Below, one piece after another: positions 12,554 through 62,143 of a stretch of DNA of 64,000 bases. A program made the translations under genes and the position numbers. The notes under the pieces were generated by a model that had not been told where the DNA came from, did not search any database, and saw only the letters and a list, made by a program, of their open reading frames with translations. The stretch spans positions 6,510,001-6,574,000 of the forward strand of contig OX638159.1 of NCBI GenBank assembly GCA_951804945.1, written 5' to 3'. Position 1 is the stretch's first letter. Each line of letters opens with the position of its first letter. The DNA is from Podarcis cretensis (taxonomy: Eukaryota).

Positions 12554-12782
12554 ACAAACATTTCAAATGCATATCTCAGTTCAAATGGGTACACTCTGCA
12601 TTGACTCCAACTATCCCAACCTACCAGAGACAACTTTAAGTTCTTATGCTGGGAAGCCTTTTCAAAGTTTCATGCATATGATTGTGGCCAGTGGTCCTAC
12701 TTTACAGAGGGCAGTCCTCTTTTTGAAGCACTATCTAGTTCAAATCTAGTTTAAAGTTTAAATCATAGCAGTTTAATCTGGC

Positions 12783-13797
12783 TTGCTTATTTAACATATA
12801 TGCAGAATTCATCATGCGAAAGGCTGGATTGGATGAATCCCAAGCCAGAATTGAAATTGCCGGAAGAAATATCAACAACCTCAGATATGCAGATGACACA
12901 ACTTTGATGGCAGAAAGTGAGGAGGAATTAAAGAACCTCTTAACAAGGGTGAAAGAGGAGAGTGTAAAATGTGGTCTCAAGCTCAACATCAAAAAAACTA
13001 AGATCGTGGTCCCGTCACTTCTTTGGAAGTCTTTAAGCAGAGGCTTGACAACCACATGTCAGGAGTGCTCTGATGGTGTTTCCTGCTTGGCAGGGGGTTG
13101 GACTCAATGGCCCTTGTGGTCTCTTCCAACTCTATGATTCTATGATTCTATGACCTCCTGGCAAACAGAAGGGGAAGAAATGGAGGCAGTAAGAGATTTT
13201 ACTTTCTTGGGCTCCATGATCACTGCAGATGGTGACAGCAGCCACGAAATTAAAAGACGCCTGCGTCTTGGGAGAAAAGCAATGACAAACCTAGACAGCA
13301 TCCTAAAAAGTAGAGCCATCACCTTGCCGACAAAGGTCCGTATAGTTAAAGCTATGGTTTTCCCAGTAGTGATGTATGGAAGTGAGAGCTGGACCATAAA
13401 GAAGGCTGATCACCGAAGAATTGATGCTTTTGAATTATGGTGCTGGAGGAGACTCTTGAGAGTCCCATGGACTGCAAGGAGATCAAACCTCTCCATTCTG
13501 AAGGAAATCAGCCCTGAATGTTCACTGGAAGAACAGATCCTGAAGCTGAGGCTCCAATACGTTGGCCACCTCATGAGAAGAGAAGACTCCCTGGAAAAGA
13601 CCCTGATGTTGGGAAAGATGGAGGGCACAAGGAGAAGGGGACGACAGAGGACGAGATGGTTGGATAGTGTTCTCGAAGCTACCAGCATGAGTTTGCCCAA
13701 ACTGCGGGAGGCAGTGGAAGACAGGAGTGCCTGGCGAGCTCTGGTCCTTGGGGTCTTGAGGAGTCAGACACGCTAAATGACTAAACAACAACAACAA
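12783..13797 (+). mobile_element. Bov-B (RTE) LINE 3' portion, interrupted by a CR1 tail
   Basis: RT motif NNLRYADDTTL (ORF 12814) continues in ORF 13150-13776 (DAFELWCWRRLLRVPWTARRSN...); (CAA)n tail. Confidence 0.95.
13019..13153 (+). mobile_element. CR1 3' tail inserted inside Bov-B
   Basis: Matches the CR1 end at ~40565-40698 (TTTAAGCAGAGGCTTGACAACC...CCAACTCTATGATTCTATGATTCTATGA). Confidence 0.9.
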
Positions 13798-20428: not shown

Positions 20429-20617
20429 NNNNNNNNNNNNNNNNNNNNNNNNNNNNNNNNNNNNNNNNNNNNNNNNNNNNNNNNNNNNNNNNNNNNNNNN
20501 NNNNNNNNNNNNNNNNNNNNNNNNNNNNNNNNNNNNNNNNNNNNNNNNNNNNNNNNNNNNNNNNNNNNNNNNNNNNNNNNNNNNNNNNNNNNNNNNNNNN
20601 NNNNNNNNNNNNNNNNN
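20429..20617. other. Assembly gap
   Basis: Run of N. Confidence 1.
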
Positions 20618-28542: not shown

Positions 28543-28942
28543 GTGTTGATGTTGACCTTTAAAGCCCTACACGGCCTCGGCCCCGTATACCTGAAGGAGC
28601 GTCTTCACCCCCATCATTCTGCCCAGACGCTGAGGTCCAGTGCTGAGGGCCTTCTGGCGGTTCCCTCACTGTGAGAAGCAAAGCTACAGGGAACCAGGCA
28701 GAGGGCCTTCTTGGTAGTGGCACCCGCCCTGTGGAACGCCCACCCATCAGATGTCAAAGAGAAAAACAACTACCAGACTTTTAGAAGACATCTGAAGGCA
28801 GCCCTGTTTAGAGTTTTTAATGTGTGACATTTTAATGTATTTTTAATCTTTGTTGGAAGCCACCCAGAGTGGCTGGGGAGACCCAGCCAGATGGGCAGGG
28901 TACTACTACTACTACTACTACTAATAATAATAATTTATTATT
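28543..28942 (+). mobile_element. L2 LINE 3' end
   Basis: Closely similar to the 61731 copy (TFKAL.GLGPVYLKERL...); (TAC)n(TAA)n tail. Confidence 0.88.
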
Positions 28943-28991
28943 AAAGCCTTATTGGGAAATGCAGAGCAGAATCAATGTGATTAGTTGTCTT

Positions 28992-29429
28992 TTTTTTTTT
29001 TTAAAAAAAAAAAGATATTTATTAAAGTTTCCAATTAACACATAAAAACACAAACAACAATAAAAACATACACAAACACAATACTAAAAACATGTATAAT
29101 TTCAAATCTTAATTCTTAAACCTAATTTCCTCGACCTCCTCGCACCTCCCCCTTCTGTATTCTAATTCCATTTATCTAATCAGCAAATCCATTCCCTTAT
29201 TTCCCATTATTTTTTATAATTCTGTTCTTTTTCCTTAATCAGCACCCCTGAAAACCACAAAATTTTAAAACTCATGTCGATTCTAGTCTTCATTAATATT
29301 ATAGTGTTTGCTTAGATAGTCTTTAAATTTCTTCCAATCTTCTTCCACTGTCTCTTTCTCCTGGTTTCGGATTCTGCCCTTCATCTCTGCCAGTCCCATG
29401 TAGTCTGTCAACTTCATCTGCCATTCTTC
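28992..29429 (-). mobile_element. 5'-truncated L1-clade LINE fragment
   Basis: Minus strand encodes EEWQMKLTDYMGLAEMKGRIRNQEKETVEEDWKKFK, homologous to the ORF 37798 C-terminus; AATAAA and poly(A); 15-bp TSD GTGATTAGTTGTCTT. Confidence 0.9.
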
Positions 29430-29458
29430 TCGGCCTTTTGGCTAAGATCAAGTGTAGT
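29426..29458 (+). pseudogene. RNU2: U2 snRNA fragment (nt 5-37), retrocopy fused to an L1 in the opposite orientation
   Basis: CTTCTCGGCCTTTTGGCTAAGATCAAGTGTAGT is an exact 33-nt match to the conserved vertebrate U2 5' end, including most of the branch-point recognition sequence GUAGUA. Confidence 0.92.
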
Positions 29459-30821
29459 GATTAGTTGTCTTAAAGTGATCAGAAGTGGGGAACCTCTGTC
29501 ATTCTGAGCACCACATTTATTCATGGGCAACCTTCTGGAGAAAGCATGCTGGTAGTAGGCAGGGCCAGAGGTTAAAAAAAAAGCCAGTGGGATAACAGAT
29601 ACAACTCTTATCCTTTGTACAGCCCAACAGAAGTAAGAGGTGCATCTTTCCATCCTCCATCCAGGAAAGCAAGAGGAACTGCCTCAATTCAAGGACACAC
29701 TCCAGCCAGTCCTGAGGGCCAGACAGAGAGCCCTGGAGATCTGCATTTGGACACCGGGTCCAAGGTTCCCCACCCTGTCTTAAAGTATTAATATTAAATG
29801 ACTTGGGCAGGAATCCTGTTCAGCAACCTGCTGAATCTAATGAAGTTTTCAAGCAATTTTTTGTTTATTCCCCTTTCCTCCTGATTCCCCCTGCACCACC
29901 TAGAACACTGTTCCAGAAGGTGCGTGTTATGTACGCCAACCCCGTGGAGGCATGAGGGAAAGGGGAGCCAAGAAAGTACCTTATTCTATAAGCAGAATTC
30001 CACACACAGAACTCTGGATCAAGCCCCTTATTCGTTGGGTAGCCCATGTATCAACTTTTGGTGAAATACATTGTTTTGTTTTTCCTCCGGCAATGGCAGT
30101 AATTTTGCTTTTCTTAGTTGTCTACATCTGGGAACTTCACCTTAGTTGTCTACGTCTGGGAATAAGTTTGATTATGCACGAAAGCTCTCCTCTAGATCCG
30201 ATGTCTTGCTAAGGTGTTTTCAAAACCTTTCCATCAGTATCGAGGGTTATGTTTACCTGTGTGACGTTTATGGAGAGTGAAAACACAGAATATCATAACA
30301 ACCTCAGAGAAGCTCTTCAGAACAGTACTTTATAATGGATGCGGTCATTGTAACTTGTATATTCAGATTGAGGCCACATCATTTAAAAGTCTTCATAGAG
30401 GATGTTTAGCACAATATAGCTACTATAAGATTATCAAGAAACCAAGGCACTTTTGCTCCATATATTTTGGTGTAATCTTATTCATTTTGTGGTACAATAT
30501 CTGTATTGTGAGTCACTGAATCACACAGTCATATATACCTCTATCCTATGCTGCAAGGAGCTTATGTTCTCTTTATTGTTCTTTTTTGAAAAATCTAGTT
30601 TTACAATGTGCCCAGAATGTGAATATGGGAGATAATTTGCAAATACAATGATTGCAGAACAATCATTCATTCATTCATTCATTCTTCTCCCTCATTCAAT
30701 GAAGAGGGAGGGTGGATCATTTTTCCTCTGCGGAAACATCTGAAGATTAAATGAAATGTTCTCAGTTCATCATCATAATGTATTAGTTGCTTTATAAATA
30801 ATATGTGCAACTTGCTGTACT

Positions 30822-36560: not shown

Positions 36561-37765
36561 TCCCAACAAAGCTCATCTTACACTTTTTCTCTCTACTAAC
36601 CTTTTGGGTTTATTTCAGAGAGCCTTTGGGATCAAGCAGGAGATATTTTTTTCTTCTGATGATTGGTTGTGGTGGGTTTGGGGTTTGTTTTTGTGTGTGT
36701 TTTTTTGCTGGTTGTTTCATGACAGTTTATGGGTTTCGAGCTATGTCATAAGCTGCTTTTGGGGGCATACCTGGTTAAAAAATGGAGCAAAGTATTGGTA
36801 ATTAGTTAGTTATTAGGAATTTGGTATGCAATGAGGTTCATGGCTGCTATTGTTTCATTAATCCCCATTTTTAGAGTAGCTGAAAGTAAGGAATTTCTAA
36901 GTTGCCTTCATTCTCTGTGGAAGTCATTGTGCACAACAGTAGATCCACCACAGTACGTGATGGAAAAATTCACCTCCTGGATCCATTGTTAGCAAAGGTT
37001 ATGTGTGTTTTGCTCTGGAAATAAATTAATCCCTTTGGGCAAAAGACCATGATTTATTTTACCTCCACTTATATCTGCATATCAGGATGAGGTAAAGCAC
37101 TGAATTATGAAGAAGAGATGCTTATAAATAACCGTCCATTCTAGTTCTCTTCTGGATTTAGGGGTTCTGGTCTATTGTGTCCTGGACACTGAGCAAGGCC
37201 GATATACTTCCTTTTTGTCATTCTGTCTTTCTAGAAATTGTAAAGATAACTGGTGGGGTTCCGGTCTGACCTCTCCAAAATAATGGCTCTTATTTTGAAA
37301 ATCTGTGGAGATTTTATAAAATTGAAAGTATTACTACATGTACATCCAGGTTCGTGTACATACATCTATGACATATTAAACAACAACAAAATGCCCTTTT
37401 GTTTTGCCTTAATGGTTGGTTTGGAATAATTGCTAATTGCACAATTAAACTGATATGGTCAGGAGAAAACATTATCTGTTTTGAAGTATTTTTATGTATG
37501 TATGTATGTATGTATGTATGTATTACACTATCCTTGTAGCAAATGTCTAAAACCCATTAGGGCTCCTGCTGAAACTGACCAGATATATTAAGTTTACTGA
37601 CATCATCTTTTCTTTCACTGCATGTAAAAAGAGAAAAATCATGTCAGTGACAAACTTCCTACTCAGTTTCGTATTAGTCAACTACAAACTTCCTGCAGTC
37701 TTAAACAAATCGCTCTCAACCACATGCAAAGGGGTTGGTAGTTAGCCAATCTGAGGAAGGCTGAC

Positions 37766-38971
37766 TGGAAAATAAAACTCCCAGGTGGCTTTCACCAATG
37801 GAGGCTAAGGAGGTAAAGAAACTTAATATGAGAACTAATTGGCCAAAATATTGTGAAATTTTAGAACAAGAAGGTGGTGAATTTAAACTACAAAGTTTTG
37901 AGAAAATAAAGTCCAAGGTATGGGATTGGCTCCATTATTTTCAAATAATGGAGGCCTACAAACAAGACAGGAAAATTGGTTTCCAGGTGGAGAAATCGAA
38001 ATTAGAAACAGAACTGTTAGAACCCAATACTAAGAATTTATCAAGAATGTATAACTTGCTGTTGAAGTGGAATACAATAGATGAGACAGTGAAGCCAGCT
38101 ATGATTAGATGGGCACAGGACATAGGTCATGACATTATGTTTGCTGACTGGGAGCAGTTATGGACCACAGGTATCAAATTTACGGCATGTAATGCCTTAC
38201 AAGAAAACATTATGAAAATGATTTACAGGTGGTACATGACTCCAGTCAAGCTTGCGAAGATTTATCATTTGCCCAATAACAAATGTTGGAAATGTAAAGA
38301 GACTGAAGGTACCTTCTTCCACCTTTGGTGGACCTGCCCAAAGATTAAGGCCTTCTGGGAAATGATTTATAATGAGATTAAGAAAGTACTTAAATGCACC
38401 TTTCATAAGAAACCAGAGGCATTTCTCTTGGGTATGGTCGGCCAGCTGGTGCCGAGGAAGGATAAAAATTTCTTTTTGTACGCTACTACGGCAGCAAGGA
38501 TTCTTCTAGCAAAGTATTGGAAGACACAAGAGCTACCCACGCTGGAGGAATGGCAGGCGAAAGTGATCAATTTTATGGGACTGGCAGAAATGACCGGCAG
38601 AATCCGCGACCAAGAGAAAGAGACTGTGGAAGAAGACTGGAAGAAGTTTAAAATATATCTTAAGAGTTACTATAAAATTGAGGAGTGCTAAAATGCTAAG
38701 GGAAAGGAAGACGTAGAATTACAGCGGTAAATTTTGTTTGATTTAGGGTGAAATTGAAAGGGAGAATGAATTTATATTTAATTGGCTAAAAGGGTTGTTG
38801 AATAATTGTTAAAAATAAAAGGATGCAAAAAGGGGAAGGTATGGGGAAGTCCGAGAAAAGAGGCTTATGGAAATAAGGTTAAGAAATTATGATTTTATGT
38901 GTTTGTTTCTATGTTGTTTTTGTTGTGTTTGTTAAAAATTGGAAAATTAATAAAAAAAATTATTTAAAAAA
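37766..38971 (+). mobile_element. Young 5'-truncated L1-clade LINE (ORF2 C-terminal zinc-knuckle region, 3' UTR, poly(A))
   Basis: Uninterrupted ORF to 38691 with the CCHC motif CWKCKETEGTFFHLWWTCP; AATAAA and A-rich tail; perfect 18-bp TSD AATCTGAGGAAGGCTGAC at 37748-37765 and 38972-38989. Confidence 0.93.
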
Positions 38972-39634
38972 AATCTGAGGAAGGCTGACAGAATGCAATA
39001 GGAGAAATCTGTCCAGCCCTAATCAATGTTTGCTTTCTTTGAAGGATAGCCTTTCTCTACTTTTGTTTTAATCAGACTGGATGCACTCTTCAATAGCTTT
39101 ACCATGTTTTCTCGTTCTTTATGCCCATCTTGCTGTCTGTTCAACGGAGATTTGTACCCAATTTACATAAATTCACATTTTGAACGATTTCTCAGAAATG
39201 TGAAATCTTCCATTTTTAAACCTAGAACAAATTCATTCCACATTTTGCATAGTTTATTTATTTAAAATTTTTATATTCTGCCTTTCGGGCCTAAAGGGCA
39301 GCTAACAAGTCCAGTGTTAAAGACAATACATTTTGATATCATGAATAATGTTATCATTAGCAGGCCTGTAGACTTTTGGAGTTATACATGTCCATTAATC
39401 TGAGTCAAACTACTTTTGAGTATCAGTGCTAGGATTGTTCTGCCCCTTCTCTCATTCCACTATATGCTTAGTTATTCCCAGCTAGTTGTCAGGGAGCATT
39501 GGAACCCACATACCAGAAATTTCAGACTTCATTACTGTAGCATTGCAATATTCTCCATGGTTTTAACCAAGGTTAGCTTTTTTAAACAACACCCATAGTT
39601 TCACTGACTGTCTGGAGTGAGCCAGAAGCCAAGA

Positions 39635-40698
39635 ACCGGAACTCAGTGGATTTGTAAATGGCTGACTGACCGAACCCAAAGGGTGCTCATCAATGGTTCC
39701 TCTTCATCCTGGAGAAGAGTTACTAGTGGGGTGCCACAGGGTTCTGTCTTGGGCCCGGTCTTATTCAACATCTTTATCAACGACTTGGATGATGGACTCA
39801 AGGGCATCCTGATCAAATTTGCAGATGACACCAAACTGGGAGGGGTGGCTAACACCCCAGAGGACAGGATCACACTTCAAAACGACCTTGACAGATTAGA
39901 GAACTGGGCCAAAACAAACAAGATGAATTTTAACAGGGAGAAATGTAAAGTATTGCACTTGGGCAAAAAAAATGAGAGGCACAAATACAAGATGGGTGAC
40001 ACCTGGCTTTAGAGCAGTACATGTGAAAAGGATCTAGGAGTCTTGGTTGACCACAAACTTGACATGAGCCAACAGTGTGACGCGGCAGCTAAAAAAGCCA
40101 ATGCAATTCTGGGCTGCATCAATAGGAGTATAGCATCTAGATCAAGGGAAGTAATAGTGCCACTGTATTCTGCTCTGGTCAGACCTCACCTGGAGTACTG
40201 TGTCCAGTTCTGGGCACCACAGTTCAAGAAGGACACTGACAAACTGGAACGTGTCCAGAGGAGGGCAACCAAAATGGTCAAAGGCCTGGAAACGATGCCT
40301 TATGAGGAACGGCTAAGGGAGCTGGGCATGTTTAGCCTGGAGAAGAGGAGGTTAAGGGGGGATATGATAGCCATGTTCAAATATATAAAAGGATGTCACA
40401 TAGAGGAGGGAGAAAGGTTGTTTTCTGCTGCTCCAGAGAAGCGGACACGGAGCAATGGTTCCAAACTACAAGAAAGAAGATTCCACCTAAACATTAGGAA
40501 GAACTTCCTGACAGTAAGAGCTGTTTGACAGTGGAATTTGCTGCCAAGGAGTGTGGTGGAGTCTCCTTTTTTTGCTGTCTTTAAGCAGAGGCTTGACAAC
40601 CATATGTCAGGAGTGCTCTGATGGTGTTTCCTGCTTGGCAGGGGGTTGGACTCGATGGCCCTTGAGGTCTCTTCCAACTCTATGATTCTATGATTCTA
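39635..40698 (+). mobile_element. 5'-truncated CR1 LINE (RT domain to 3' tail)
   Basis: GVPQGSVLGP, KFADDTKL and [11 protein letters not shown] motifs; ORFs 39617 and 40043 are in the same frame, split by one TAG; (ATTCTATG)n tail. Confidence 0.96.
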
Positions 40699-51449: not shown

Positions 51450-51589
51450 NNNNNNNNNNNNNNNNNNNNNNNNNNNNNNNNNNNNNNNNNNNNNNNNNNN
51501 NNNNNNNNNNNNNNNNNNNNNNNNNNNNNNNNNNNNNNNNNNNNNNNNNNNNNNNNNNNNNNNNNNNNNNNNNNNNNNNNNNNNNNNNN
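51450..51589. other. Assembly gap
   Basis: Run of N. Confidence 1.
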
Positions 51590-61730: not shown

Positions 61731-62143
61731 ATAGTACGTTTCCGAGCACAATTCAAAGTGCTGGTGCTGACCTTTAAAGCCCTAAATGGCCTCGGCCCAG
61801 TATACCTGAAGGAGCGTCTCCTCCCCCATCATTCTGCCCGGACGCTGAGGTCCAGCGCCGAGGGCCTTCTGGCGGTTCCCTCATTGCGAGAAGCAAAGCT
61901 ACAGGGAACCAGGCAGAGGGCCTTCTCGGTAGTGGCGCCCGCCCTGTGGAACGCCCTTCCAGCAGATGTCAAAGCGATAAATAACTACCTGACATTCAGA
62001 AGACATCTTAAGGCAGCCCTGTTCAGGGAAGTTTTTAATCTGTGATATTTTAGTGTATTTTTGGTTTTTATGGAAGCCGCCCAGAGTGGCTGGGGAAACC
62101 CAGCCAGATGGGCGGGGTACAAATAATAAATTATTATTATTAT
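61731..62143 (+). mobile_element. L2 LINE 3' end (young)
   Basis: Open frame VRFRAQFKVLVLTFKALNGLGPVYLKERL...RAFSVVAPALWNALP...FRRHLKAALF; (TTA)n tail. Confidence 0.92.

Follow-up and report, generated by a model that had tools for sequence, protein, structure and literature searches.

Structure of the composite insert

Between positions 28977 and 29471 of the 64-kb window (the whole stretch of DNA analysed here), the 3' end of an L1 on the minus strand, 438 bp in total, and a piece of U2 snRNA on the plus strand lie together within one 15-bp target-site duplication (TSD). The U2 piece is antisense to the L1, the 5' ends of both parts meet head-to-head at 29426-29429, and the insert has an endonuclease-like site at the end that carries the L1 tail as well as two short overlaps, one between the two parts and one between U2 and the TSD. 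The features are listed below with their coordinates in the window.

28977-28991, no strand: TSD, left copy, 15 bp, exact
28990-29002, minus strand: L1 poly(A) tail, 13 nt, its first 2 nt common to the TSD
29003-29013, minus strand: run of 11 T immediately before the L1 tail
29014-29282, minus strand: L1 3' UTR, aligning to the 3' UTR of the sister L1, with AATAAA at 29018-29023
29283-29429, minus strand: end of L1 ORF2, last 48 codons and stop, 5' truncation at about 29426-29429
29426-29429, no strand: inner junction, 4-nt overlap of the L1 Glu-Glu codons with U2 nt 5-8
29426-29458, plus strand: U2 snRNA nt 5-37, truncated at both ends, with stem-loop I and most of the presumed branch-recognition sequence
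29457-29458, no strand: outer junction, 2 nt common to U2 nt 36-37 and the TSD
29457-29471, no strand: TSD, right copy, identical to the left copy
29467-29475, plus strand: putative first-strand nick context GTCTT/AAAG, resembling the L1 endonuclease consensus
37766-38971, plus strand: sister L1, truncated at its 5' end, its ORF2 end open over 308 codons

The initial annotation had placed a 15-bp TSD around a minus-strand L1 3' fragment with poly(A), and the two copies are indeed exact. The 15-mer cannot be extended at either edge and occurs only these two times when both strands of the window are checked; at one fixed place it would be expected by chance with a probability of 1.5e-9. Exact direct repeats of at least 15 nt, spaced 100-7000 bp apart, number 30 in the window, where many fall together within pairs of copies of a repeat, and given this number the weight of the TSD comes from its location at the L1 tail and at the U2 end. 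No separate TSD was found for the L1 or the U2 part alone, the longest shared words being 4 and 5 nt. The right TSD copy is followed by AAAG, which gives the target GTCTT/AAAG on the presumed first-nicked strand and bears out the earlier proposal that the empty site resembles an L1 endonuclease target. The endonuclease consensus is found in the L1 orientation only, as the opposite end (28975-28981) is not T-rich on the minus strand.

The run of 11 T ahead of the tail was absent from the initial annotation, and the sister L1 likewise has a short T-rich stretch in front of its tail. Together with the tail and the first target letters, the T run forms a near-perfect inverted repeat at 28988-29015, which may be a feature of the family or a product of slippage.

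The U2 piece matched 33 of 33 consensus positions (5-37) of Rfam RF00004 with 39.9 bits (E 2.2e-6), a score that lies under the RF00004 gathering score of 46 bits. At the gathering threshold, Rfam returned 0 families anywhere in the 64-kb window, and a tRNA search of the window found none. The assignment to U2 nt 5-37 on the plus strand, inverted relative to the L1, stands as originally made except for its 3' limit, which is ambiguous between nt 35 and nt 37. According to the Rfam structure line, nt 36-37 belong to the unpaired region after stem-loop I, and they fall into nt 33-38, which we take to be the branch-recognition sequence. Since the insert lacks a U2 promoter, an Sm site and any complete ORF, no function is expected of it; the single copy at this locus is dead and shows no sign of being functional.

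To the left of the insert, a high-copy repeat (28543-28942) ends in CTA/ATA triplets about 35 bp before the TSD. This repeat, which we take to be an L2-type 3' end, is 88% identical to 61758-62128. A Pfam scan of 146 of the 193 stop-to-stop frames of at least 75 aa gave two matches, both of them reverse transcriptase fragments (RVT_1) at 12769-13776 and 39608-40528, presumably RTE/BovB-like and CR1-like.

Parts of the region 28700-29900 are contained in 19 of 22 public sequencing runs (shares 0.17-0.67). Contigs from four of these runs, examined on the left flank and the L1, consisted only of short pieces of two repeat families, and most of the L1 3' UTR was covered in this way as a repeat family. 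None of the contigs extended across the stretch, and depth was nil at 28900-28999, which was skipped as a repeat. Since such contigs are repeat relatives only, the run shares say nothing about whether the locus was filled or empty.

The L1 family

The closest reference for the L1 part is the sister copy in the same window, with which the insert shares 109 of 144 coding nucleotides. The sister ORF matched human L1 ORF2p over its C-terminal part (E 3e-11, the best match among solved structures). A Pfam scan of this ORF gave no match. Its best protein relatives were Podarcis sequences, from P. lilfordi and P. muralis (5 of 8 matches, 63-85% identity), which makes a lacertid lizard the likely host. 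Two P. lilfordi proteins shared 69-71% identity over 45 aa with the 46-aa ORF2 remnant of the insert. A 24-nt L1 pattern had 0 matches in metagenome contigs, and 0 of 593 pattern matches were confirmed as relatives. The sister L1 is flanked by an exact 18-bp TSD (37748-37765 and 38972-38989), so this family can make TSDs of about 15 bp; for the L1 clade, a peak at 13-15 bp has been described (PMC4245944). The nick context of the sister copy, AGATT/GGCT, fits the L1 endonuclease consensus poorly.

The two junctions

The position of the inner junction follows from the reading frame of the L1. The motif PTLEEW is present at this point in the two closest Podarcis proteins as well as in the sister L1, and because the insert retains both Glu codons while the Leu is lost, the L1 would end at about 29429, with U2 starting at 29426. 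Three of the four letters of the overlap are fixed by the Glu-Glu of the family LEEW motif. The fourth, a wobble base, is not the same in the sister copy, with which the overlap letters agree at 3 of 4 positions only, and matches an 8-contig loose-end consensus of related L1s from run X19. We infer the full 4-nt overlap proposed in the initial annotation from these comparisons and regard it as supported.

At the outer junction, the 2 nt shared by the U2 end and the TSD were confirmed. An overlap of 2 nt is expected in about 1 of 16 cases by chance, and the published range is 1-5 nt. By visual inspection the TSD seemed able to pair further, with U2 nt 36-46; this pairing was rejected as background, 56% of 6633 control sites being equally good in duplex energy and 27% of 6633 in an anchored alignment. 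Overlaps at inversion junctions are described in PMC2912911.

Probable origin by twin priming on two RNAs

In our assessment the insert very probably derives from one L1 insertion in which twin priming took place on two RNAs and the products were joined over the 4-nt overlap. That both parts belong to a single event is suggested by their common TSD, a feature of the sequence itself. In the proposed course of events, L1 ORF2p would nick the plus strand at GTCTT/AA, and the T end thus exposed would prime on the L1 poly(A), from which about 440 nt would be copied. Ahead of completion of this first copy, the minus strand would be nicked 15 nt away. The 3' end at the second nick could then pair over about 2 nt with the unpaired U2 nt 36-37 and be extended toward the U2 5' end. 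The two new 3' ends would finally anneal across the 4-nt overlap, with the loss of U2 nt 1-4, and would be filled in either through repair or through a jump of the same reverse transcriptase from the U2 RNA to the L1 cDNA.

Several lines of evidence favour twin priming. One exact TSD surrounds both parts, neither of which has a TSD of its own, and the target agrees with the endonuclease consensus when read in the L1 orientation but not in that of U2, a criterion used by Doucet et al. (PMC4476161). The same work provides a human U2/L1 precedent with the same profile, and in the human set of Law and Burns 10 of the 11 antisense U2 pieces start beyond nt 1 (PMC13174262). Internal copying of U2 by lizard L1 machinery has moreover been reported in the form of tailless anole copies (PMC5322556). 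The anatomy of the insert matches the published class of twin-priming chimeras, which supports the two-RNA origin put forward in the initial annotation.

Counting against twin priming is the outer overlap of only 2 nt, with longer pairing no better than background. The inner overlap, too, shrinks to 3 of 4 matching letters when the sister copy serves as reference. The U2 end at nt 35-37 is also untypical of the human antisense set, in which none of the 11 ends lies at or before nt 41 (PMC13174262), although short U2 pieces may be missed in that set. Furthermore, twin priming is not established in sauropsids, since the NAR 2014 study of LINE 5' junctions (PMC4245944) observed no 5' inversion when human L1 was active in chicken DT40 cells.

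Alternative origins

The short overlaps bear on a first alternative, in which a single L1 insertion took place and end-joining at the L1 5' end took up, as filler, a U2 cDNA synthesized elsewhere. Overlaps of 2 and 4 nt are as short as in microhomology-mediated joining, extended primer pairing is absent, and LINE inserts with 5' extra nucleotides and repair joining have been described (PMC4245944, PMC2912911). The place and direction of the U2 piece speak for priming instead: its end sits at an internal-priming hotspot, its orientation is the one that priming at the second nick must produce, and random capture would not predict that 11 of 15 human U2/L1 chimeras are antisense, as they are in the data of PMC13174262. 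We therefore consider filler capture unlikely.

A second alternative separates the two parts in time. A tailless U2 retrocopy would have made the 15-bp TSD, and a later L1 would have inserted at its 5' edge with deletion of U2 nt 1-4 and no TSD of its own. Tailless U2 copies of similar length are common in the anole: in the list of Noll et al. (PMC5322556), which contains 64 such copies, 44 are 33-39 nt long with a median of 36, length being used here as a proxy for the 3' end. The TSD of the present locus, read in the U2 orientation, does not start with the A-rich tailless target TT/WAAAAWW described in the same source, whereas the L1 orientation fits the endonuclease target, and a second TSD is absent. 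Coincidence would also be required, since independent insertions are expected to yield 0.002-0.07 abutting U2/L1 pairs per genome, a rough estimate with assumed copy numbers and genome size that was made before requiring the absence of a second TSD. Two successive insertions are accordingly quite unlikely.

A modification of twin priming was considered because of the left flank, where 17 bp (28963-28979) resemble U2 nt 24-34 in 10 aligned letters, a likeness equalled by 1.7% of 42,389 control sites in a test that was post hoc and one of three. U2 RNA might have helped to choose the second nick by pairing with the target strand, once opened, over the site of the later cut, followed by priming and a 3-nt slip in the repeated branch-recognition triplet. 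If true, a passenger RNA would assist lizard L1 in placing its second-strand cuts. The likeness is most probably due to chance, given the post hoc choice among three tests and a register 3 nt off the priming register, and we regard such guidance as very unlikely.

That the assembly artificially joined unrelated repeat reads is barely credible: the window holds two N gaps (20429-20617 and 51450-51589) and a spanning contig was not seen among the contigs of four runs, but a misjoin would not yield an exact 15-bp duplication at both ends together with an endonuclease-like site.

Implications for lizard L1

Twin priming on two RNAs, if it produced this insert in a single event, would show a native L1 of a lizard to be capable of starting reverse transcription from the second nick and on a foreign template, an ability documented for mammalian L1. 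Routine twin priming by lizard L1 is plausible, with one locus as its basis. The locus raises the question of whether twin priming is general to amniote L1 and whether the U2 33-39 hotspot is used by both nicks. The initial annotation had placed the priming at the branch-recognition sequence of U2. Nothing in this is particular to the locus, as the end of the U2 piece is the usual one among the tailless anole copies (PMC5322556) and pairing with the target extends over only 2 nt.

Comparison with known systems

Chimeras of U6 and L1 that arise by template switching or ligation contain full-length sense U6 and were rejected as a model for the present insert, which has a truncated antisense U2. 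The anole screen of Doucet et al. covered U6 only, and those chimeras were described as template switches (PMC4476161).

Keno and Utopia insert into U2 genes and are then followed by U2 from nt 39, as described in PMC4640811. The present locus resembles them in having a LINE beside a U2 fragment that is broken near nt 37-38, and we asked on this ground whether the arrangement could be that of a U2-associated element family, be it Keno, Utopia or a SINEU-like U2-headed LINE. U2 nt 37-38 adjoins the Keno/Utopia site, Utopia is reported from Anolis in the same source, and the left flank is faintly U2-like. The remaining anatomy makes such a family exceedingly improbable. Unlike in Keno and Utopia, the U2 piece lies inside the TSD, at the 5' end and antisense, the target is not a U2 gene, and the L1 tail is followed by the TSD and unrelated, non-U2 flanking DNA rather than by U2 nt 39 onwards; the LINE family, moreover, matches L1 ORF2p. 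SINEU, which like Keno and Utopia is defined in the work of Kojima and Jurka 2015 (PMC4640811) and Kojima 2015 (PMC4494074), and a U2-headed LINE were rejected as well, as U2 is antisense here, unlike a head, and the relatives of the insert continue as ORF2 upstream of the junction.

The tailless U2 retropseudogenes of Noll et al. 2015 share with the insert the internal unpaired region from which U2 was copied, over about 33-39 nt (PMC5322556). They differ in having a TSD around U2 alone and in being primed at an A-rich first nick, whereas here the left TSD is separated from U2 by 438 bp of L1, and the L1 holds the endonuclease-type end. The insert was therefore not classed as a tailless retropseudogene: its U2 end fits the hotspot, but the TSD does not directly flank U2 and the target is not A-rich. 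When the tailless anole copies of at most 41 nt (47 of 64) were set against the human antisense ends (0 of 11), Fisher's test gave p 4e-6, but as species and detection methods differ between the two sets, we do not use this comparison as evidence.

Law and Burns 2026 list 15 human U2/L1 chimeras, 11 of them antisense according to the strands as counted in this analysis (PMC13174262). Most human U2/L1 chimeras in this list are antisense. Of the 11 antisense U2 pieces, nine have their end at nt 53-66 and the others at nt 107 and 169, and antisense chimeras of small RNAs (U2, 5S, tRNA) with LINE-1 are ascribed to twin priming in this source. In the present insert, too, a piece of small RNA that lacks its first bases lies antisense at the 5' end of the L1. 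The insert differs from these chimeras in that their set is human only and dated via multi-species alignments, and that their U2 ends lie further 3'. Of two further papers, the accessible text of PMC5381506 did not yield the word 'inversion', and that of PMC5389967 mentions twin priming only among its references.

An inverted snRNA/L1 chimera in a squamate was not found in the literature searched, which had subscription papers mostly outside its scope. The novelty suggested in the initial annotation thus holds for the squamate host and not for the inverted U2/L1 class or the two-RNA model, both of which were presented by Doucet et al. 2015 (PMC4476161). In that work, 7 of 30 human snRNA-repeat chimeras are inverted, inverted chimeras of U1, U2, U5 and U6 with L1 are described as Group IV, and twin priming on two RNAs is proposed. 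Row 2 of its Table S1 (U2_3'trunc-L1) gives a U2 end at nt 55, a TSD of 14 and a 2-nt junction, and the targets in this table include CTTTT-AA and TTTCT-AA. The present insert differs from the U2/L1 chimera of Doucet et al. in its probable lacertid rather than human host and in its U2 end (nt 35-37 versus 55). It resembles Group IV in that an snRNA without its 3' part lies antisense to an L1 that is truncated at the 5' end and has a poly(A), with one TSD (15 bp here, 14 bp in the human case) and a 2-nt target junction, as well as in having the endonuclease consensus in the L1 orientation alone, and the same mechanism is proposed for both. With respect to the literature searched, only the squamate host is new, while the class and the mechanism have already been published.
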